Shown: one piece after another, positions 3,080-47,679 of the stretch
How positions within the stretch are numbered: position 1 is the first letter of the stretch
How the letters are laid out: the number at the start of each line of letters is the position of its first letter
From: Massalongia carnosa
Lineage: Eukaryota
DNA length: 64,000 nucleotides
Direction: 5' to 3'
Assembly (NCBI GenBank): GCA_965645245.1
Contig: OZ287077.1
Coordinates: 1,488,001-1,552,000 of the forward strand
Position numbers and translations under genes: made by a program
Notes under the pieces: model-generated
Seen by the model: only the letters and a program-made list of their open reading frames with translations
Told to the model about the DNA's origin: nothing
Databases searched by the model: none

Positions 3080-6000
3080 ATGCTGCTCGTTCATCAGGTA
3101 GGATCTGTAAGAGTGGGAGAGGTAGTACGGTAAGTCTAGGAAGCGTACAGTAATGTCTACAGTAGTTGATCTTATTTAGATATACCCTGACATATACACC
3201 CTCACTCGACTGCATTTTGCCGTCGCCAATACATCTTCACCTGAAAGTTAAGAATACTTCTGCGATTCCTCTTCGAGCGGCCTATCTCCATGGTCCTTAC
3301 ACGCTTTACTCCGCTTGTTACCCTTCAACCTTTGACCCGAACCACAAAGACGATGCACTGTCACAGCACGGAGCTCCAGATTTTGAACCCAATCTTAAAG
3401 CTGGCGGGAGTTGGCACAGCCGGCTTACCGTGCCAGACAACGTCCGGGAAACAGCGGGTAAGGCCAATATTAAAAGAATGATTGATGGAGGGATCCCTAA
3501 ATGCACGTGGATCATTGAAGTCTTATCACAAGTTATATTTTCCACATCTGCTACTGTGCACTACGAGCTACTGATTGGCAGAGATGAGAAATCGTTAGAC
3601 TTAGGATTCCCCAGCTTGACAGGACAAGTTATTTCCACTCCCGGTCAGCTACAGGATCATCAGCAAGGAAAGGGCAACAAGAAAAATCATAACGCTACTC
3701 AGTCTCACGGCATTTTCTCGACTGCAGTCACTTTGGAAGTTGACGATACCGCAAGTTTATGGAATAAGCCTGCTTTGCCGGAATGGAGTGACGACGGGGG
3801 GGAAAGGGGACTGATGAGCGATGACCATAGTGTAGCTGCGGATGAACATCCAATAAAGAAACGGAAGAGGGTTCATCTAGTAGTACTTACGCATGGACTA
3901 CACAGCAATCTTGGGTCTGATATGCTATATCTCAAGGAAAGCATTGACGCGGCAGCCAAGCAAGCTCGTGAAGATGCAAGAAAGAGAAAAATGAAGCGAA
4001 AGTCCAAAATCCCTACAGAGGTTTCCAAGTATGAGAATAGAGGGGAAGTTGTAGATGGTGTTTTTTCAACCGCTGCAGGGAAATCATCTATAGCTCCATT
4101 GTCTGGCGGCCAGGATGAGCTTGATACAACGTCGGGCGCCGAATTGGAGGACGAGGAGGAAGTCATTGTCCGAGGTTTCTCAGGTAATGCTGTCCGTACA
4201 GAACGAGGCATCCAGTATCTGGGGAAACGCCTAGCCAAGTATATCCTCCAGATGACTTACCCTGATCAACCATTTCTACCAGTCAAAAAATCGGTCAAAA
4301 AGAAAATTTCCCAAACTTTCTCAGGCCAACCACCAATGGACCTAGGTTCCGGATTACCAACCCATATTCATAGTAGTATACATCGCGGGCCGAAAAAAGC
4401 AGAAAATCTGGCATACAAAATTACAAGCATCAGTTTCATCGCGCACTCCCTTGGTGGCTTAACTCAGACTTATGCTATTGCTTATATCCACAAAAATTCC
4501 CCGCATTTTTTTCAGGAAATCAGACCAATCAACTTTGTTACAATGGCCTCGCCTTTGTTGGGTCTCAGCAATGAGAATCCTATTTATGTCAAATTTGCGC
4601 TTGACTTTGGTCTTGTTGGTAGAACTGGTCAAGATCTGGGACTTAGATGGAGAGCTCCCACAATGGTACGAAACGGATGGGATGCTATGATCGGTGGGCT
4701 TGGTTCTGAAGGCCAACGAGCGCTTCGGCAACCTGATCCCAGCTCCAAACCTCTGCTCCGAATTCTACCTACAGGTCCTGCACGAGAAGTTTTGAAAATG
4801 TTTCGAAATCGGACCGTATACTCCAACGTCGTCAATGATGGCATCGTCCCCCTACGGACATCGTGCCTACTATTCCTGGATTGGAGCGGTTTAGGTCGTG
4901 TTGAGAAAGCAAGGAGAGAGAACGGTATAGTCGGAACAATGGCAGGTTGGGGATGGGCGGAATTGACTGGGGCAAATTCGAGTTCCCATCGACGTTTTTG
5001 GGATATGCATGATGACGAAATTGACTCTCAAGCAAGTAAGAGTAGCGTGGAGGCAGCAAGTAGCTCTCACAAGAAGGCCGAGCAGGCCGTTGTACCCCAA
5101 CCTGCTGAGAGCTCAGCCAGAAACAACGCTGGTGGCACTGACAACGAAATCCCGGAGCAGGGTCAGATTCGTGGACGTGAAAGCCATATGGACGGAATAA
5201 CGGAGGAAGACGATCACAATGCAAAGAAGAAGGATTTACAACCTGTTCAGCCGGTTAACCCTATCGATAGCTTCTTCAACTTTCTACGGCCGGTTCAACC
5301 GAAACCTCGTCATATCTCCCCAAAGCGTAGCAAAATTTATACCAGAAGCCAAACTCTTAACCTAGATACGGGAGACTCAGGAAGTGTGTCCTCGGGCAGT
5401 ACGTCTGGCCTGGACAACGCTTTACCGGTGCGCCGTTCAAGAGCTGTAAGGGGCGGTTTAACGGTTGATGATCCAGAAATTGGCTTTACACCTCCAAAAA
5501 CCAGTTTCTTCGAAGCAGCCGGCGATTTACTAAACCCTCCTTTGCCGTCCATAGAGTTTATCATCAATCCTGCCAGCCGACCACGCACTATATTCCATGA
5601 TCGTGTCTACCACCCCGAAGATATCCCTGATCCACCCGCCAAAAAGCGAAGGGCGTTTTCGAGGACTTTTTCAAACGAATCCAACAACGGCTCTATACGA
5701 TCCGACAAGGGCCACAGCAACGAGAAAGCCAGCTCTACCAAAAGCGGTATGAAAGTTGAAGAGAAAATTGCACGAGCCTATCACCACGACGTCTCCTGGC
5801 GCAAAGTCCTTGTCCGCCTCGAGCCCGATGCCCATAACAATATTTGCGTTCGTCGCATGTTCTCCAACGCCTATGGCTGGCCAGTAATTAAGCATCTCGT
5901 TGACACTCATTTCTCCGATTCCTTTGTCGCTACCACGGCCGATGCAAGGGAGCCGAATCGGGACCGTGCCAAACCGATGGGCGAAGCCGTGGGCGAGCAT

Positions 6001-35269: not shown

Positions 35270-36245
35270 CTACTCAGCACCTTCAGCCAATCGACGAAAC
35301 TTTCGCGCTCGCTTCCTAGCCCACTTTCCCAACCTCAAACTATCGAGCCAATCGGTCGTATCGCTAGTGCCGCCACCACCAGCATTTGCAGCCTCAGCGT
35401 CGGTAGGGATGTTCTCATCTAGAGAAACAACCGCAGCAGGGCCGTCTTCGGTAGGAATACTTGCGTCGGAGCTGGTCGTTTCAGGATCGTCTGCCAGCGT
35501 ATTTGCAAAAGCAAAGATGTTCTCCGATCCCGTGGCAGGTAGGCTGTGCGTTCCGGCGGAAGCGGTGTTGATTTCCGCACCGGTCGACGCGGCAGAATCC
35601 GCTCTCCCAGGTGGCGGCCCAGACGTCAACGGCCGATTGGGGTTCGGGCAGTGGTTTTCTATCGGCGGCAAAAAGCGATTGATCTGGCCGGACACCGGGT
35701 CGCGGTAGTCGGGCGAGTCCTTGTAAAAGTCACGCTTGTAGTAAGGGTTCGGCTCTCCCTTAGCCTCTGGGTAACAGCCATGGGCGCAGCCAAGCCCTGG
35801 TCCACAGGGTTTAGCAGGGGCGGATATACAAAGCATTATTCGAGCATTGTAAAACTTACATCTGCGTCCCCAAGGAACTTCCCGGAAGAGACAATGATCT
35901 GGCGCCCATATAAACGCATCTCTTCCTTTTGGCAGCTTGTTGAATACAAAAGCATCTCTCCATTTAGGTTTCCGCTCCCTCTCTGGAGCGCCTGGAGCAA
36001 AGCCCGAGTCAATAATAAATGATTCATCGACGTCTATGGGTACATCGCCGGGGCAAAGACTCGTTAAATGAGCGTTGGTAAAAACCAAAACGCACCACGT
36101 GTTGGTTGACTAGATTTGAGTAATTAGATCCAGCAGGTACGTAAAATAGATCTTGACGGCTATGAACACACACCAGTGTATTCGCATCGCAGAGCGTTGC
36201 GAGGCTAAACAACAGGACCCAAAGTCCGCACAGAAGAATCTTCAT
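35270..36245 (-). CDS. Secreted Cys-rich protein with Ala/Ser/Thr-rich linker and basic tail (about 300 aa)
   Basis: Exon 1 (36245-36174) encodes signal peptide MKILLCGLWVLLFSLATLCDA. Intron 36173-36110 (GTGTGT..CTAAT..TAG) joins it in frame to the 35270-36088 ORF. Confidence 0.72.
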
Positions 36246-39200
36246 TTTCACGATCCGATCGGTACTTTCCTTCTACTCCGTCGATAGATGTCCCGTGAGG
36301 TATGGAAATTTGAGTATGTCCCGATGGAATGACTTATCAGATCCTTATAGGTAATCAAGTACCCCCTGGTCCCTGACACCGAGACTGGCCGAACCGATGC
36401 TTCCATCCTCCACGTTACATAAAGTGCCTGAGGTCAAAGCAGAAATCGTTCATGAGAGGCCATAATTCTGGACCATAGGGGCTAAGAATCCGGTTCATCG
36501 AGGCGACACATTGTGCAACATGATGAAAGCATGGCAAATGCACCCTATCACCTAGTGCAAGGCCTTGGATCAAGTGTGAAGCGCCGGCGTAAGGAGATCA
36601 AAGAGGATTTTCCGTCAAATTGTGATCCAAACCTATGGCACTCTACAAAAAGAAATTTCTGAAAGAACCCGCTTCCCTGTTATCATCATCGATCAAGTCC
36701 ATAGATCATGCGCATTGGGATAAGAATAGTTCACGTTGAAGAACCACTTGGAACTACGCACGCCATAGCACGGCACGTTGCCGCATCCTGGAAATCCCAA
36801 AACATGAAACCGGAAGCGATATTCCCCGTGACAAACGAAACCAACAAATGAAATCCACAAACGAAACCTGGGGTTTCCCAAACGCAAGATAAGCTGCTTG
36901 ATCTGCCTTGCGGAATGTGGCCAAAGACGAATGTAACAACGGGAAGTCCTCGTATAAAGTGTTGGATCCTGGTCTTTAGTAGTGAGAAAATGTCACACTT
37001 GAGCTGCCGATGATGCAAAGAAACGGAAGTGAACCATTCAAGCTGAGGAGCAGCTCCAGACCAACATGCGCGCAGGCCAGAACGGGTATCCCAGTTCCTT
37101 TACATCCCGTAGTACATACTTTTCTGATGAAGCGAAAGAGCCCCTTGCTCCGAACTTTCCTGCGGTCCGTCGATCATATCGTGAAGATCATAGTTTGATC
37201 GAAGCCCCCGAGCAACTCTGCCTGTTCAAAAGCGAGGCTCGATAAAAGGCTGCCCAACTTGTAACTACCCAAAACCAAACCCTCCTGGAAAGAGGAGGTA
37301 GAAAGATACGAAGCAAAGTTGACGGAAGGATAAGTGTTACCTAAATACTCAATGGTCAATCACGTGATATTTATCAGGTGACCAGCTAACTCGTAAGAGC
37401 CATTGCCAACTTCGACTGATACCTCTTAAGAGACCATCGTCTTTGACATAGAAAAGGGCACGACAAGCTCGTATCAACTCAGATTGATGCTGTCTATTGA
37501 GATCTAGACGAAGGGCGAGATACATGCCCACTCTAGCCTCCTGTTAACTGCATCATGACCAGAAAGGCAAAGGCAAAGAGCCAGAGATACGCCATCGCAA
37601 GTAAGGTGTCATGCAACCAGTTGCGAAAGGTGTTGTCCTGCAGAGGCGCTGAACAAGAAAAAAAGTCACAGCAGCTCTTTTCAAGCGAAAGAATACTTCT
37701 GAATTCGTATCAAACATAATGCAAACTTGGCGCAAGCATGATAGAAGATGGATTCATTAAGGGGAAAAGCTGATCGTACGTTACAGATCTCTCTGTGAAA
37801 GCGCCCAAGGGAAATCCGGCAATCACGCTCCAGCACGCTACTAGCTGTGCACGCTAGGTGATGTTTGAGATGCGTATATGTTCGGAATCTTTAGCGCTGT
37901 ACAGCTATGCCTACTCATGGATAGAGTCTGCGTCCTACAAAAATGTACCGCATGATGCTCTTGGAGATTAGTAGGTTTGTATGGCAGAGGGTATCATTCG
38001 CAGGCGGTATTGGCTCATGGTGTAGTTATGGTCTACTCGTCTCTATTTTGGATTGGGCTGATTTAGACGATGGAGAATACTCTTGTTTCTTTCCCACATT
38101 CTCCGTTGTGGTCCCAAAAGGATCAAGTTGCTCTGACTGCTTGTATGCCTCCTTCCTTGCTAGCTCGATGAGCAAATAGCGAGGAAGAAGAATGGCAGTA
38201 GATGAAAACAGGAAAAACAAAAAAGATGGTCCGGAAATATACCATAAACTCGTGCTCTGTTGGCATTCATGACGACGTTCTGCCAAACAGTCAATTTGAA
38301 GCCTCTGTTGCAAGCAACCCATTTGCCACCGAGAAATGAATGAAACAAGAGTTGGATTTTTCGACATATCTCCATCATTTGTCCAAGTTTGTGATGGACC
38401 CGTCCGCCTATCCGATCGCAAATCGCTCATGATTCAACAAGAGCTACCTCCATTGGTGTCTCTCGTCTCCCAGAACCATCCTTGACGAGATACACTCAAC
38501 ATCGGCGAAATATCAGATCTTAACATTCCGATCGGGATGTGAAAGATAGCGATTGATCAGTAGAGCATTCATAGCTTTTCTCTGTTCGTCTACAAGTGTC
38601 TTTTCTTTCCATTAGTCCATCTTTTTCCAGCACATTATCTTCATGCATATCATACCAACCAAGCGCCTCCACCAACACACTTTTGCATCCAGGATTCCTA
38701 AAACTTACTTTAGCCGCATAAGTCATTAATGAAGCCCGCCTATATATTCTAGAAACCCATTTACAATAAAAATTCTCGTCGCCGAGCGGCGATGAGATCC
38801 TTATTCGATGGAAATTACACCTTAGTACACCAAAAAAAAATGAGTACGTCTGCAAGCCACTCCAGGTGCATATACTATATTCGGTTAGCGCCATCAACCC
38901 TCACTATCTGACACGGATCTTCAGTCCAGGACCGGTCGAAGTCGAAGTTTCGGACAAGCCCGGCTCATATATAGAGCTGAAACCCCCAGGGAGTTGTGCA
39001 AAGTCCACCAACATAAGGGAAATATCGAACATGGGTTTCAGCAATTCATGTTTTCCAATCATCTTATCTTCCATTCCTCTGCGACAATACATGACTACCC
39101 TCAAACAAGATACTCCTACTCATTCTCCGCCACATTACCAACGATCCTTTATATCCAACTAAAACCGTCAAGTCATTCCAATAAACACGTTCCCAGCCCC

Positions 39201-39256
39201 ATACCCTCTCTCTAATTCTACACGTTGCGCTTCGATCTCCTGCACAATTCCCCTAG

Positions 39257-39568
39257 CTAAGCATCCGACAAAGCCTGATCAGCGCCATTCACCGCGGTCG
39301 TCTCCATGCCTGGTGCATTCTTCGCTACATCCTCAGCTACCACACCAACCGTGCCAACACTTACCGCAGTGCCGAGTATGGCGTTCCCATCTTTAGCCGT
39401 AGTGTCTACGAAACCTCGGCGGGTAGCGATTGAAGAAGCTAGATGGTGGTGTTGGTCAGCTGACAGTCTAAGGGGATGGAAGGAAAGGGAGGGGAAGGGA
39501 AGGGTAGTACAAGTTGGCGCTGCGATCGCAGGCAATAAGAAAGGAAGAAGAAGGATTAGGAATTGCAT
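39257..39568 (-). CDS. Small secreted pre-pro-peptide (about 79 aa)
   Basis: MQFLILLLPFLLPAIAAPT, then a phase-1 intron (39510-39439, GTACTA..GCTGAC..TAG), then SSSIATRR-GFVDTTAKDGNAILGTAVSVGTVGVVAEDVAKNAPGMETTAVNGADQALSDA*. TATAAAA at 39721-39715. Confidence 0.75.
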   Translation of the reverse strand: MQFLILLLPFLLPAIAAPTCTTLPFPSLSFHPLRLSADQHHHLASSIATRRGFVDTTAKDGNAILGTAVSVGTVGVVAEDVAKNAPGMETTAVNGADQALSDA

Positions 39569-40692
39569 GGTCGTTGGTGTTGTTTGGTGAGGGACGTTGG
39601 GGGGAAATGGGGTTTTCTGGTTGTGGAAGCTTTGAATCGGCGTACGAAGGATTAGTTGTCTTGTCTGGTAAGTAAAGGGAAAAAAAAGAGGAAAACGAAG
39701 AGGATCGAGACTGGTTTTATAGACATTTCCTACTCCCACGCATCCATAGCCTCCGAGGGGACTATTTCAGAAAGTTTCGTTCGGGAAAAGGTATTATGTG
39801 CTATTCGGAAATGGCCGAAAGAGATGGGTGAGTGAGTCGGTGGCTTGCGTCATAAACATGATCTCTGCGAGCACCGAGCATGGCCGAAATACGTGGTTGC
39901 TAGTATTGACTAGACGCTGGCCCCGATCCGGAACCGGAAAGCCTACCTTTTTGGGGGAGGGGGGAAGAGAGCGTTAAATGGACGGATGGATAGATTGATG
40001 TGGCAAAATGCAAAGCCTAAATCGATTGCATATATAGTAGAATTCTTCGAGTCCGAAAGAGGGTGGGAGGGGAAGGAAAGTTTAGTTTCGGGGTTTCAGG
40101 TCGCCTACTCCCCAGTGAAAGAGAGAGAAAGAAAGAGAATGGATGGATGACATGCTTGCTCGGTGGCTCGCTCGCTCGGTCTTGACAGGGTTCGGAAAAG
40201 GGTGATAGATGCACGAACGGGTAAGTAACGTAGGTTGCTTATATCCCATATACCGAGCGGTTTATTTCTGGATTTAGGGGGGGGGGGTGGGGGAATATAA
40301 GTTCCAAAGTCAGGAAAGGGCGAAGAAACAAAAGGAGGATGGGAATACGGGAGATTGACGAGCAAGAGCAGGGTTTAGTTTTGATTTAGTAATTGGTGTT
40401 CTTCGAAATGGGGCCCAAGCAAAGCGAAAAGGGGATGTTTTTTTTTTTTGGATGGATGGATGGATGGGATGCTATGTACGTATGGAGCCGGGAGGGAGGG
40501 AGGGAGAGGTAGGGAGAAGGAATGAGGGAACAGGAAGAATTGGACAGGTACAGTAGGTAGGTAAACCAATAGATAAATAAACGGACTATCGTCATCTAAA
40601 CCATCCAGCCATCATGAGACAGGGAGGGGTTAAATGAATGAATGAAATACCTGTTGGAAGAGGAAGAGAGGAGTTAAACCACGGGGAATAAA

Positions 40693-40738
40693 ATGGATGG
40701 ATGGATGGATGGATGGATGGATGGATGGATGGATGGAT
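40693..40738. repeat. (ATGG)n tetranucleotide microsatellite
   Basis: About 11 tandem copies; a shorter copy lies at about 40450-40467. Confidence 0.95.
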
Positions 40739-41396
40739 AGGTATATATATATTACGAACGAAAGAAGGGTTTTTCTTGATCATGTGTGTGACGAAGCTTA
40801 TAGAGTATTTCCGTGAACTGGAACGGCTCTTCGCGCGCGCACACACGCGGTTGAGGGATGAGGGATGAGGGATGAGGGGTAGGGATATGAAGAGGAGAGG
40901 AGGAGGAAGAAGAGAGAGAAGGAAGAAGTTGGAGTTAGACGAAACGGGAAAGACGGATTTTAGGAAGAGCGAATGACATGAGAGAAAAGGGGGGGGGGGG
41001 TGGACGCATTAAAGAAACGATATAACAGTAATAATAACTCGACAGGTATATCTGAACTTGATCGTTTGAAAAGAAAAAGAAGAAGAAGAAGGATAAAAAA
41101 GTCAAACTTGAATTAAGCCGCAAAAAGTTTTGCATCCAACTACTTAATGCGAGTGATGACAAACCCAAAAAAAAAGGAAGAAAGAGAGAAACCTCCCCTC
41201 TCTCAACCCTTAATCCTCCAAAAGGAACCATTTACCTCCAAGAATGCTGCCTCGTAGCGCGAATCTTTCCAATCTCCCCCCCCTGCCTTGCCGAAAATTT
41301 GACCTCTCTTGTAATTGTTTTCGCTAACCCCCCCCACAACCAAACTCCTTCCTTCGTTATTCATAAGCTACCCTCAACCTCGCTCCTCTTCCCTCT

Positions 41397-41654
41397 TCAA
41401 TAATTCCCCAACCCCACGTCCACTCCTACTCCCACGTCCACTCCCACTCCCACTCCCACGTCCACCTCAACTTGCCTTGAGATGAGTTGGTGGGGTGCAG
41501 GGAGAGAATCTGAGCAGGGAAATGGGGGTGTTTAGTTGGTTTTTTTAAAAGTTTGAGGTTAGGTGAACGAGGGGTTGGCTTACTAATTGGAGCGGCGTGA
41601 GCAGCAGAGAAAAAAAATGGAGACTAGGAGCAGGGAGATGGTGGCTCGATGCAT
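41397..41654 (-). CDS. Tiny secreted Val-Gly-repeat peptide gene (about 60 aa), frameshifted by +1 in a T8 run as assembled
   Basis: ATG at 41654; intron 41583-41510 (GTAAGC..CTAAC..CAG). With T7 instead of T8 at 41610-41617 it reads MHRATISLLLVSIFFSAAHA-APINSLPAPHQLISR-QVEVDVGVGVGVDVGVGVDVGLGNY*. TATATATA at 41835-41842. Confidence 0.62.
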
Positions 41655-43015
41655 CTCTTCCTGTTTTGGGCGTTGGGATGGTCGGGTAAATTGTGGAGCT
41701 GTGGAAATGGGGGAACTGAAAGGTGAAGACGATGGAGGGTTTAAAGCTCTATAGGGTACTGGTGTTGATTGAGAAACGAGAGGTAGATGGGGAACGAAAA
41801 GAAAAGCAGATCAGTTCGAAGGGATTGAGGGGGGTATATATACCTGATCTTGCTAGGCTTCAAGAATCCCTTCTCATCAGAGCACCGAATAATAGGCGAT
41901 TATGGCCTTGAAGGCTTCATCTCCGTTGCGTCAGTGACGGAGGAAAGAGGTGGTGTAGGGGATCATGTCCACCCACGGATATGGGCTTTTCAAAGAATTT
42001 AGACATCGGATTATTGGCAAGAATATGCGAGCTTGGAATGAAAGACCTCCATGAAGTCGGCGCCGAAGGTCTAAGTTAGACGTATCGGAAGACACGATAG
42101 GCCTAGAACTCAGAGTGTCTAGTCTTTGATTATGGTATTGGAGAAACCGCAGTTCCCGAGGAAAAGTTCGATGATTGGTCCGAGCAAGCACGCACTGTGA
42201 TACACACTGATATCAAGGAGGTAGAGAAAGAGCATTGAATTAGCGATTAACCGCAAGAAAGCTTGTAAATGGACTATATCTGCAGGGATGCATGACGCCT
42301 AACCGAATGCAGTTGTTTCAACACAGCCACCGACTCATAGACATTCCACATTGGCCTCTTTCCAGTGGTGACCATCTATTAGCAACCACGATATGACCAG
42401 TAATTAGTAAGTGTTGTCTACACTAGAGCTCCGAAATTCTCCCCCAAGCTATGTCTTTTAACCTATCATCGACCCAAAAGATGGCTTGTCTGCTCTGCTT
42501 GCGCAACGGCACTGTCGTCACTGTCATCACAGTCTTTTGTTATCACGGGTTCCAATTTGCTAGAAGCTTAATACCATTCATCTAGCTTGAGAATGTGAGG
42601 GCCTGTTTGGTCTTCTCATTTCCGAAAGAAGTAGAAATACGTCTTGTATGGGGGAAGCGATGCTGTGCTATGCATCAGTCGGGAAGACTGCTTCCTGTGG
42701 AATGTCCCGTTCTCCTTGAAGACACACATAGGTAATGATGAAGTGGTATAAAAGTCTTTAGTAATGGGTGCTCATGGCAAATTTGGACCTTATGTGATTA
42801 AATGCGTACCTTTTGAACCGCTAGGTGAGGGAGCTATGCATGTTGGGCGTTCTGCATTGAGGCGATCCACCATTAGGCTCTTGGTTGAGCATATACTGCC
42901 CAATTATTTTAAGACTTTCCGATGATTGTTCCGAGTGTATTATAGCGGCTTCACATAGTCTCATTACTTTTAAGAGTGCAGCTGTATATGAAAGTATTCC
43001 AATAACTTTCACCCC

Positions 43016-43854
43016 TTAATTGACTAAGCGACCATCACAATCAAGGGCTTGTTCGTGCTCATCCTGAAATTTGTAAGGTATTAGCTTCAACGTGCTGAAC
43101 AAAGATAGTTCCATTATGTCAACAATAAGTTGCAGAGAATGGAATTACTCATACATCAATTTCTTCACAGCAGTAAACGGTCTCTCGATTTCTACACACT
43201 TCAAAGCCTTGTGTCTCTTTTGTGTCTGTGCAAAACATCAGCTTTCTTTGAGAAAAGTACGTGACCATGTGCCTTACAGTATATGCAATCTCTAACATCA
43301 AATATGTCCGCCGCCTTAATTGCTTTCCGCCTTCTTACCTCGTTACCAGTGCAACAGACAGCCCGAAGGCTGCCACAGTGAGGAGTGAAAAGTGGCGGAG
43401 ATGAGTCTGGGATACTGTATGGGGGCACATCTTCATCCGGGTTTGGGCATTGGTTGCCCGGGGCCGGTTTTACCTTTGGAATGTCTTGAACAGGAGAGGT
43501 TCCAAAAGAACTGGATGTAAGTCGCAAAGGAACAGACTCAGCATCACCTGACTTAGAAGCTTCAATAACCAGGGAGCTTGATTCTTTAGAGTGTTCGCCG
43601 AAGCATGGAACAGCAGCCAAGAAGTCAGATGACAGGAGGCCGGGGTTTTCGCCCGGTATCTGGTTCAGGCCGACGGCGGGAACTTGACCGCTGATAAACG
43701 AAGAAAAGGATTGATCCAAATTCGAAGGCTGTTCAAGGTTCAATGACTGAAGATGGCCGATGTCTTGGGGTGAAGTATCAGAATCCCAAGAATTGTCTGG
43801 GATAGGATTTGCGACTGTCATAACCAAAATTGCAAAAAGAGAGAGGGCAAACAT
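43016..43854 (-). CDS. Secreted protein with C-terminal 8-Cys module of hydrophobin-type spacing
   Basis: Signal peptide MFALSLFAILVMTVA. Exons 43854-43278, 43225-43155 and 43063-43016 splice in frame to ..PHCGSLRAVCC..DCIYYTKETQGFEVCRNRETVYCCEEIDDEHEQALDCDGRLVN*. Confidence 0.78.
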
Positions 43855-45686
43855 ACTTCTAAACTAATCAAATATGACCAGTAAAAGTGAGATGTGGAGT
43901 TTTACGCCTATTACATGGGATGAAATAAAGAAAGAGCCCTTGGGAAGGGGTTGGTTCTTTTCGAGACAAGCGGGATCATAATAGGGCAGGCATGCCAGAT
44001 GGCAGAAGTTGCATCGGAAGTTTGGAGATGGGACGCAGATTGCCCTGCCGTCCATCGTAGCTCGATTTCTTCGTCCCGCCTACGCGTTGCGAATGACGAG
44101 GGCTAAAAACTCCATCGGAATTGGGTAATCAAGTGTTTTAAACCGCTCACCTCGCAAGCTTCCCGATCACGGCTAGTCAGGCGGTTCGATCGACTGGGGA
44201 AGTCTGATACACCAGTCGTACCTAGGCATCAATGAGATTCTTGTGAACATGGAACGGAAGGATGGTGAAGTTGTGAAGTTGTGAAGTGGTTATTTTATAT
44301 TTAGGCTATGGCACTCCTCGCTTTGATACCTGCACACTAAACTCGGCTAGCTACACACCTTTTAGTAAATCTAGTCAACCAACAGTGAGGAAATCCATCA
44401 AATCATTCCATCAAATCATCTTCACCAAGCATCGTCTATCCAACGCGAAATTATATAGGTAAGCTAATTATGTCAGTGATAAAGTGTTTTCATATAGATA
44501 CCACCCCCTTTCTGCAAAGCCCCCAGCAGGACTTCGAGCAATCCCATGATGGTGGTTTCAAACTCAGGGTTTCCTTCTCTGACAACGCATATTTAACGCC
44601 TTGATTCCTCTGGCGGGGCCGTGGCGCTGCCATGAATCAATGTGAAGCCAGGTGGTAGAGTACCCTTGGTTCGCTATGGCTAATCATATGGAACTCTTCC
44701 ACGGATTCTTCATGTAGAGAAATCGAAGAAAATCGAAGAAAAGAACACGACGAGGACTTTTTTACTTCGGCCACGGATGCCATTTTGAAAAGGTCAGATT
44801 TTACATGGACTTAGGTACGTAACCAATACGAATCGTCTGAAAGAATGGAAGATCATTCTCAACGCCAATGGCAAATACGCTTCCGGTAGAGTTGGCAACG
44901 TTAAGGGTGTTACAACCAGAAGAAAGATGCCAAAGTCAATCAAAGTCTCACGCCACGCAAGTAGATGGACAAGACCAACGCCGAATACCCTCATGATAAC
45001 ACTTAAGAGGGAAAGCGCGCTGCAGAGCACGGTCACGGGATGGCATCTGAGGATCGATGGGTCCTGAACTGGCCTCAGACGAGAAAATAGCACGGAAACT
45101 TAAAGACCACGGGTTTAGGCCTCGATCTTGAAAGTCACATGGTGCCGAGACTTCTTTGATGTCACGTGTATGCTCATAAACGTCTTGATACTTGTTGAAT
45201 CGCAATTGGAACGGCTGTGGCTTTGGTGGCTTTTATGGCTTCAAGCTATTCTAGATTCGATTACACTGGATGTCCGAATACAGGCTGAGCAGTGCAGATC
45301 ATTTACTCGATTGGGATCTCGGGAAGAAGGGATCCGCGAGCAAACATTTTCATCTGCAGAGAGACTTTCTAGAACGCTAAGACAAGAGTATTATGAATCA
45401 GTTTAAAGGAGGAAGGATGCAGCTAATCACTTTAAGTGGTCATCGTTATTTATCCGGTCTGGCGAGCTTCCGGCGGCTTGCCTTAAGTTACTCCCGTTGG
45501 ACCTGCTGTTTCAACCGAGTTGCAATTCTTCACCCTTCAAGATTTTCTTATTCTTTGCCCTGGTCAGATGTTTTCAAGCAATGTCTCTCATGTTCTCGAG
45601 CACTTGCAATGAAGGGTTTCGAATAAACGCTTCATTGAGATTTCTTCATTCTCTCTAACTAATGCCCATTCCTCCTAAGTGTAATT

Positions 45687-47679
45687 ATGTCTTTGTCAGA
45701 ACCCAAACTCGCAGAGACCTCACCGAACCCCCGACGAGGCACCCGCATCACTCCTAGAACCTGCTTATGGCCTCTGGCAGGCAGTCTAGTCGCGACATTC
45801 GGCCTCTCCATTGGCTTAACATTCCGCTCCAATCATCACTGCTTCGCTGGGACGTGTGGGGAATGGCTCTTCCCACTTCAAGCCCGCCTACACGTCGTTG
45901 TCTGGTATGCTTGGTTGTCCATCTCTGTCACTTTCCTTGCCGTGCGCGCATTCCACCCGGAAATGCAGAAAGTCTTATCGCGGCCGCTATTACTGCGGAA
46001 GTTACCCATCGTGGGGAAACACCTCTCCGGGGGGGGAGCGCTGATGCTCTGTTGGGTGTTAACTCTATATGCTGTTGTTGTGGGCATCTGGTGGATTCGG
46101 CTTCGGAACTATTTCGTCAATCGTGGAATTGCGGGTGGGGTTAAGCACGGAGGCCATCAGCTGGCAGCCGTGGGATTGACGGGACATTTGTGCGACATCA
46201 CAATGGGGATGGTCCTGCTGCCGATTTCAAGGCACAGCGCGCTGGCCTCCTTTTTCAAGCTGTCCGTGTCTACGACGTTGACGAACCACATGCTGACCGC
46301 ATATACGCTATTTGTGCTGGTGCTGGTGCATGGCTTGATTTACCTGTCTTGGGTTCGGGTATTCAACAGACTGTCAACAGCCCTCCGCAAGATAATTCCA
46401 CTGCTTAATCCAACCTACCTCTATCATGAAACTTGGCCAGGCAACACCTCATCCCTGGGTCTCTGGCGGGCATCATTAATTTTCACGGGAATCGTCGCTG
46501 TGTTAATCATGTCTGCTCTTTTCATCACTACGCTGCCGACCATCCGCTCAAAGCACTTCAACCTCTTTTACTTCACGCACCTCTTTAGCATCTTGATGGT
46601 CATCATTATTTGCTTGCACGCAAGCACAATGTTCTACTGTACTGCACCGGGGCTCGCCATGTGGTTTCTTGATTGGGGCATGCGCCTCTATGAGTTGCGC
46701 CGTGTCCTGGACGGCGAAATCACCACCATCGGGAATGGCTGGTACTGGTTAGCTTTCCTTCTTTTCTTGTTTGCATTGTCTTTCTGCAGAGTTCCAAGGG
46801 ACAGTTTAAAGATGAGTGCTAATGAGTAAACACAGCATCAATATCCCTCTCCCGCGCTCCCGACTAACCGGCTGCTCCTGTCGCTCCCCCCTTGCCCATT
46901 TTTATATTCACCACGCCGGCTCCTCCCTCCGTGAGCTCCACCCCTTCACCACAACCACTCATCTCGCCTCCCAGCACGCCGCCACTCCACCCAAATACCC
47001 CGATCTCCCCATCCAGTTCCTCTTCCGCAAGTCTCGCTCGCCTTCAGCCCTAACCCCAATCCCATCCTACAACTTTTTCCGCCCACTTCTGCACTTCTTG
47101 CATCTCAGCAAATCCCCTCGAAAAGGCACGCAATGGACGGAAAAACTCGCCAGCTTGGTTGACAACGATCCTATCGCTCAACCCCCTTCTCTTAAGGGCA
47201 TCCCCGTCTCCCTTCGCCTCGAAGGTCCCTACTTCTCCCCCGCTGATCCGTCCCGCTACGCGCAAACTCTATGCCTCGTAGCCGGCACCGGCATCAGCGG
47301 CGCCCTCGCCATCGCCACCGCCTTCGTCTCTCAACCCTCCCTTTCCTCTTCATCCCATTCCATTGCCCCCCCTCCAGCCTCCCAGGAGCGAATATGGCGC
47401 CGCTGCACTATCCTCTGGAGTGTTAAAACTAGCGAAGCGATCGATCCCCCCCTGCCGTTTTTCCCGCCATCGGGGGTCGAGGGGCTCGAGATCCGAGTGT
47501 GGAGAACAGGGCTGGGAAAGGAGAGGGCGGATTTAAGGGGCGCGGTTGAGGATGCTAAGCGGGAAGGTGGGGGACGGATGTGGGCTTACATCTCCGGCCC
47601 CAAGGCTTTCGTGACAGCGGGCGAAGAGGCGTGCAGGAGCGTTGGGGGAGTGGATTTCTTCGCTGCTGGATGGGGATGA
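45687..47679 (+). CDS. Ferric reductase-like transmembrane flavocytochrome (FRE family)
   Basis: Intron 46748-46835 joins two ORFs. TM His pairs (NH..VHG; TH..LH), FAD motif LHPFT, LRLEGPY, LVAGTGISG and YISGP. Confidence 0.88.

Follow-up and report, generated by a model that had tools for sequence, protein, structure and literature searches.

The window, i.e. the whole 64-kb stretch of DNA that was analysed, is fungal, and a lichen metagenome is among the public sequencing runs that contain it. In addition to a divergent FAS1/FAS2 pair and a ferric-reductase-like gene (Table 1), it encodes an OPT transporter, a DUF383/384 protein and other genes. No Pfam match was found among the ORFs between approximately 34 and 45.6 kb. 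This interval, in which the candidate described below is located, contains three minus-strand ORFs with signal-peptide-like starts (at 36245, 39571 and 43854) and looks like a fast-evolving compartment. The ATG at 36245 is a textbook signal-peptide-like start just 5' of a 279-aa ORF without a Pfam match (35273-36109), and, to judge from the sequence, the segment 35273-36272 of the minus strand is probably a secreted protein with an intron. The candidate is flanked on the same strand by ORFs of 217 aa (43204-43854) and 104 aa (39260-39571), both with hydrophobic N-termini and no Pfam match, the shorter one with its own TATAAAA about 150 nt upstream; these are either fast-evolving secreted proteins or non-genes. 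The segment 39400-41100 is dense with simple repeats, i.e. (AAGGG)7, (TGGA)n, (GGGA)n, (ATGG)11.5 and (TGAGGGA)5. Its plus-strand GC skew reaches +0.58, and the lineage of the lichen metagenome (run X5, described below) differs there by one 7-nt unit and by 1 nt in a run.

A sequence-only reading of this DNA had proposed a gene for a secreted peptide in which Val alternates with Gly, Asp or Glu, switched off by one base in a homopolymer. All of its statements about the sequence were reproduced on the minus strand: the TATA box, the first ATG at 41654, the signal-peptide-like start, the 74-nt intron and the 25-residue core at the C-terminal end of exon 2 are each where they had been placed, and the observation at 41397-41654 is confirmed.

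Table 1. Positions in the window of the parts of the candidate locus and of two groups of neighbouring genes
Feature	Position	Strand	Basis or remark
Divergent FAS1/FAS2 pair	48.6-61.6 kb		
Ferric-reductase-like gene	45.7-47.7 kb		
TATA-like box TATATATA	41842-41835	-	About 180 nt 5' of the ATG; direct reading
Leader, C/T-rich, without ATG	41655..41834	-	Between TATA box and start codon
Start ATG	41654-41652	-	First ATG after the TATA box
Putative exon 1, signal-peptide-like N-terminus	41584..41654	-	Translation and heuristic signal-peptide test
T8 homopolymer (A8 on the plus strand)	41617-41610	-	T8 = stop at codon 24; T7 = open
Putative intron, 74 nt, phase 1	41583-41510	-	GTAAGC donor, CTAAC and CTAAA branch-like sites, CAG acceptor
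Putative exon 2, 36 residues (P0001), with TGA at 41399-41397	41397..41509	-	Translation
Val-alternating tract, 22 residues, also an imperfect hexanucleotide/18-nt tandem repeat	41406..41471	-	Regular expression on six-frame translations

The TATA-like box is weak evidence on its own, because TATAWA occurs 79 times in the 64-kb window (both strands). In X5 the two bases immediately 3' of the box, 41834 and 41833, are both altered and lengthen the A/T stretch. The strand bias of the leader (plus-strand GC skew of +0.45 at 41500-41999) is not specific to the candidate unit either, since the same bias extends across much of 39.3-42 kb.

Translated from the ATG by script, the assembled T8 sequence gives a hydrophobic N-terminus and ends at codon 24, whether spliced or unspliced. 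With one T fewer the spliced model has 60 open codons followed by a stop, in agreement with the early stop and the restored frame of the earlier proposal; the unspliced T7 version of the window sequence stays open to codon 76 in a different frame of the repeat, a product of 75 codons in which the repeat is read as Trp-Glu/Trp-Thr. A cleavage-type motif, A-H-A before the predicted cut and A-P after it, in a small-residue c-region encoded by the eight codons that follow the T run, occurs in the T7 frame only, and the GTAAGC donor follows about three codons past the predicted cleavage site. Read from their junctions, the introns of the FAS1, FAS2 and OPT transporter genes measure about 45-65 nt and have GTAGGT, GTCAGT or GTATGT donors, CTAAC or CTAAT branches and CAG acceptors; the putative intron is slightly longer than these real introns of the window and agrees with them in its branch-like sites and acceptor. 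Rescue of the T8 sequence by alternative splicing was rejected on a manual check, as each acceptor after the strong donor leads to TAA, TAG or an immediate TGA. Exon 2 begins with a short linker that has a single Arg and closes with the 25-residue alternating tract. Neither strand has an ATG-started ORF of 25 aa or more over the tract, in agreement with the absence of the proposed gene from the ORF track. As a gene model the candidate is supported as internally consistent.

The alternating tract is at the same time a tandem repeat. Tandem Repeats Finder reports periods of 6, 12, 18 and 24 at 41413-41472 with 82-95% matches, and the units, GTGGGA/GTGGAC, are open in all three frames of the minus strand. 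Val is encoded in the tract of exon 2 by GTG eight times, GTT once and GTA once, with one TTG (Leu) in addition, i.e. two of the three departures from GTG are synonymous and the third changes Val to Leu. The variants of the alternate codons give Asp or Glu or are synonymous, and the interruptions of the repeat thus retain Val or Leu at every second codon in one frame. However, the 18-nt unit itself has been copied, and these departures therefore represent few independent events. Codon scores in the model frame are weakly positive in three of the four segments (+2.1, +1.8, -0.95 and +3.8 bits). The sequence-only reading had argued that the codons vary and that the tract is not a pure microsatellite. 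The repeat is indeed imperfect, but the tract has the head-to-tail short units of a microsatellite and a polymorphic number of them (12 extra nt in X5), which weakens the argument. The 12-mer repeat unit occurs five times in the window at no more than one mismatch (0.29 expected). Word depth over 41419-41459 reaches about 7330 in run X3 compared with about 840 alongside, run X1 has a depth spike too, and additional short unitigs that carry 2-4 mismatches align to this segment; the hexamer repeat is therefore also present elsewhere in the sample, in the same genome or in partner organisms.

How often the remaining signals arise by chance was assessed with a signal-peptide heuristic of our own, not SignalP, that requires a positive n-region, a stretch of 10 or more uncharged residues averaging at least 2.2 in hydropathy, and small residues at -1 and -3. 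The candidate ATG passes in the T8 and T7 readings alike. Only 3 of the 2256 ATGs in the window do so, among them the one at 36245; apart from the candidate, they comprise a membrane segment of a transporter and what is probably the start of a real secreted protein. In 30 shuffles that preserve local composition, passes averaged 0.83 per 64 kb, and when the 388 nt upstream of the repeat were shuffled 4000 times, a pass arose in 3 cases. The GTRAGY word is found 77 times on the two strands of the window. A looser finder for the whole model, which asks for a signal peptide and at least 55 codons, treats the intron as optional and allows a one-base slip, returned two models in the window, the candidate locus in its unspliced T7 version and the start at 36245. 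Of 40 shuffles, 4 contained a single model each (a mean of 0.1 per 64 kb), and 477 kb of related loci contained two, which represent the same real gene in loci L012 and L017. We consider the arrangement unusual, though chance is not impossible given the many windows scanned.

The state of the T run was compared over 39200-44000 in four public runs, all of them DNA-like contigs in which no joints were seen. Runs X1 and X3 belong to the same study, possibly the source of the assembly, X4 to a second study, and X5, the lichen metagenome, to a third. X1 and X3 each yield one long contig across 41193-44000 with zero differences from the window, and X4, in which cover is patchy and depth low, yields a contig across 41512-41696, again with zero differences. 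T8 is thus present in the contigs of three of the four runs, from two of the three studies; it is a real state of the locus and not an assembly error. As they show no SNPs with respect to the window, X1, X3 and X4 were counted as one haplotype. One X4 contig departs from the window at 41849, just 5' of the TATA box, with 25 unlike letters; either a structural difference or, at this low depth, a chimeric contig may account for it.

X5 is a different lineage, with 26 SNPs in 4.8 kb (about 0.5% divergence), and it has T7 at 41610. The earlier proposal had left open whether T8 was an assembly error or a slippage allele. The first option falls with the three T8 runs, and T7 in X5 favours a real length polymorphism. 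X5 differs at the locus by two further indels. Its intron has a 1-nt deletion in an A-run (41540), along with one SNP (41551), both harmless to the spliced model, and its repeat has 12 extra nt, i.e. two hexamer units, behind 41437. The latter insertion is uninformative about coding because the unit measures 6 nt and every change in unit number is in frame. Rebuilt by script with the resulting 73-nt intron, the X5 allele has an intact frame of 64 codons and a stop when spliced, and a stop at codon 62, upstream of the repeat, when unspliced. T8 is accordingly not fixed: one of the two haplotypes is intact (X5), and the other, that of the window, is broken. The outcome that the earlier proposal had named as a refutation, T8 fixed and no intact orthologue, is therefore not what the runs show.

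The weight of this result depends on how readily such runs change. Nine homopolymers of at least 7 nt occur in the 4.8 kb, of which three are changed in X5 and two lie in stretches that the comparison skipped; among the four runs of length 8, the run at 41610 is the only one changed. We estimate that T7 would be met in X5 in the absence of coding constraint with a probability of roughly a tenth to a quarter, so that a gene is favoured by a likelihood ratio of perhaps 3-5. The SNPs add little. X5 has none in the 184 exon bases, one in the 74-nt intron and four in the 246 nt of leader and promoter, and the zero in the exons carries little weight because only about one was expected. All six SNPs in the two neighbouring ORFs are non-synonymous, which leaves the exon comparison without calibrated power or a yardstick of constraint.

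Homologues were sought at several levels. When the 44-residue stop-to-stop frame was used as the query of a word-indexed protein search, none of 1838 word-sharing candidates (24-77 aa) matched it at E <= 0.01. There was no usable match in the ESM Atlas, no Pfam match to the candidate peptide at E <= 1, and nothing significant in the PDB (a single row at E = 0.49). A phmmer search against 1.84 billion representatives returned two matches, both of which were rejected as unrelated, internally repeated proteins that align to the linker. The only Rfam match scored 18.5 bits against a gathering score of 60, i.e. no known RNA family is recognised at the locus; no tRNA was found there, and our literature search on Val-Gly repeat peptides led to papers on the bacterial protein VgrG and to no fungal Val-Gly peptide family.

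The orthologous locus was sought in 32 loci (L001-L032) of lichen-type metagenome contigs around relatives of the ferric reductase, with up to 10 kb on each side. In 28 of them most of the query aligned, at an identity of 67-82%; the other four matched only part of the query. Window positions 41200-41900 (701 nt) gave no blastn match in these loci, five neighbouring window proteins gave none at E < 1e-3, and a Val-alternating frame was found in none of their six-frame translations. The relatives do not have FAS2 or the other neighbours of the window gene (45687-47679) alongside, meaning that either the gene order around the ferric reductase is not conserved or the matches are paralogues. Since gene order was not kept, this search did not reach the orthologous locus and is no proof of absence. 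Weak exon matches in L002-type loci, in L024/L025 and in L012/L017 were rejected as G-rich antisense sequence or as part of an unrelated secreted protein. This protein, at 3138-3977 on the plus strand of L012 and also in L017, is clearly coding and has a 255-aa second exon. In its gene the signal-peptide exon extends a few codons beyond the cleavage site before a GTAAGC intron begins, which is the layout proposed for the Val-Gly locus.

The explanation that we tentatively prefer, with a confidence that stops a little short of even, is a small, lineage-restricted and strain-polymorphic orphan gene of a lichen-type ascomycete for a secreted peptide, null in the window strain and intact in the lineage of X5. 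Such a gene would be transcribed from the TATA box, with the transcript starting 5' of 41654. Exon 1 would encode a cleavable signal peptide, the 74-nt phase-1 intron would follow directly, and exon 2 would contribute a short linker and then, over about 25-29 residues, an acidic tract made up of Val (one Leu) in alternation with Gly, Asp or Glu. As the tract is built on an imperfect GTGGGA/GTGGAC repeat, its length would drift by whole hexamers. In the window lineage the extra T would end translation at codon 24 and make a null allele, and in the X5 lineage T7 would permit a 64-codon precursor. This reading makes a prediction that was tested on X5: the run there has seven Ts, and the other two indels of the locus leave the spliced frame intact. 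The observations that weigh against a gene include the broken reference allele, the frequent homopolymer length changes between the two lineages, a repeat that is open in every frame and the searches that found neither a homologue nor an orthologous locus. Taken as a whole, the interpretation given by the sequence-only reading is partly supported; transcription, splicing, secretion, processing and function are steps that we infer for the candidate.

After removal of the signal peptide, the mature product may form an extended strand. The alternation of Val with Gly, Asp or Glu makes such a strand two-faced, one face all Val and the other Gly/Asp/Glu, and a strand of this kind would tend to pair into sheets or to occupy hydrophobic/hydrophilic interfaces of the hyphal wall. 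An AlphaFold2 model of exon 2 from the single sequence (mean pLDDT 79, pTM 0.18, no secondary structure by DSSP) is uninformative about assembly. The tract is preceded by a single Arg, which does not make a dibasic Kex2 site. Cleavage after this Arg, an N-terminal pyroglutamate, sheet formation, an amyloid state and surface activity are all hypothetical.

The main rival is that nothing is encoded here, the locus being a coincidence in a pyrimidine-rich, microsatellite-bearing intergenic spacer in which the T run and the repeat vary neutrally and the free choice of intron and frameshift makes the "gene". We regard this as possible, if somewhat doubtful. The core is, after all, a called tandem repeat within a 3-kb stretch rich in simple repeats and with strong strand skew, the reference sequence must be changed for the model to work, and a third of the long homopolymers are altered in X5. 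Neither a homologue nor a conserved locus emerged from the searches described above, no known RNA family fits, and shuffled windows do yield the occasional chance model. On the other hand, a signal-peptide-like start, itself rare in the upstream shuffles, a strong donor nearby and a TATA box are jointly far rarer than each of them singly. In addition, the one other haplotype among the runs compared has just the number of Ts needed to open the spliced frame, and its intron indel would break the unspliced frame and spares the spliced one.

We think it unlikely that the locus is a real transcription unit with another product (a non-coding RNA, the 23-residue T8 peptide, the unspliced T7 product or a decaying pseudogene of a larger secreted protein): the TATA box with its ATG-free leader, the unspliced T7 frame of the window that the model finder picked and the several signal-peptide-like ORFs in an interval (34-45.6 kb) without a Pfam-recognisable gene agree with it, but the unspliced frame of X5 ends before the repeat, so that the Trp-Glu reading is not kept, and there is no relic of a longer ORF downstream.

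The preferred reading, that of an orphan secreted-peptide gene, can be carried further. We speculate that this may be a young gene born on a microsatellite and still segregating as T7 (on) and T8 (off) alleles in natural populations of a lichen fungus, whose acidic peptide of 25-29 residues with an all-Val face forms an amphipathic sheet in the water-repellent wall layer of the symbiosis, hydrophobin-like in action, free of cysteine and of no known family. In this full form the proposal is improbable, and we put it forward as a speculation.

If the gene is real, it adds an unannotated orphan secreted peptide to a lichen-forming fungus, with a natural null and an intact allele one base apart. 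The length of its repeat tract would vary between strains, and it would provide material both on how simple repeats become coding sequence and on the role of small secreted peptides in lichen thalli. If it is not real, the locus is a caution: where a fungal spacer is of low complexity, a repeat may come to lie behind a signal-peptide-like ATG and a plausible intron, and the homopolymer "fix" that such a model calls for may be met by neutral variation. Since nature provides an on/off pair of alleles, the candidate is cheap to test.

Finally, the candidate can be compared with known systems. Surface-active peptides of the fungal wall are the first group. Hydrophobins have eight conserved cysteines in the pattern C-CC-C-C-CC-C, and the Rep1 repellents of Ustilago are cut by Kex2 from a large polyprotein. 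The likeness to both is confined to how the peptide is proposed to act, by assembling at interfaces as a small amphipathic product outside the cell. There is no sequence likeness, the candidate is not a large Kex2-cut polyprotein, and a hydrophobin is ruled out, as exon 2 is without cysteine and has no Pfam match at E <= 1. In its pattern the tract resembles MAX1, a designed peptide that forms beta-sheets or hairpins from alternating Val-X. In peptides of the MAX1 type Val likewise alternates with a small or charged residue to give a two-faced strand, but these peptides are synthetic. VgrG, the "valine-glycine repeat" protein, is a large spike protein of the bacterial type VI system; it is unrelated in size, taxon and repeat period, and the likeness is one of name alone.

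The earlier proposal had also seen a resemblance to Val/Gly-rich RiPP cores, while remarking that no tailoring enzyme is adjacent. According to the available text of PMC12048977, dikaritins and other Kex2-processed precursors are marked by a signal peptide, highly repeated cores and Kex2 sites, with a DUF3328/UstY-type oxidase, and often a tyrosinase or methyltransferase, a few genes from the precursor. In the T7 frame the start of the candidate passes our signal-peptide heuristic, and the reference allele is frameshifted; a putative signal peptide followed by repeated sequence would be the layout of the precursors of ustiloxin, phomopsin and asperipin. Firstly, however, those precursors have separated core copies with dibasic sites, whereas the candidate has one continuous tract preceded by a single Arg, and no KR, RR or KK occurs in exon 2. 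Secondly, a Pfam scan of 29.5-48.6 kb that took in all 86 stop-to-stop ORFs with 70 aa or more, and that shorter intron-split pieces could escape, recognised only DUF383/DUF384 and Ferric_reduct. DUF3328/UstY, tyrosinase and methyltransferase domains were found neither in these 86 ORFs, which extend some 12 kb to one side of the locus and 7 kb to the other, nor in 25 long ORFs elsewhere, taken from the 65 in the window that reach 130 aa. The remark on adjacent enzymes therefore holds and the resemblance does not: of the three defining features, as they appear in the available text of that source, the candidate fails two, the dibasic sites and the neighbouring enzymes, and we reject a RiPP cluster.

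Two comparisons come closer. With the effector-like, orphan small secreted proteins of filamentous and lichen fungi the candidate shares a putative signal peptide, a tiny size and the absence of a Pfam domain and of homologues, and also a setting in which no conserved genes are recognisable and a strain polymorphism of the presence/absence type. It differs from them in that its predicted mature part is without cysteine and is entirely a simple alternating repeat on a microsatellite. With hexanucleotide microsatellites it shares the 6/18 periodicity, a two-unit length difference between lineages and repeat words that are over-represented in the samples. What distinguishes it from a plain microsatellite is that its interruptions retain Val or Leu at every second codon, and that gene-like signals lie upstream.
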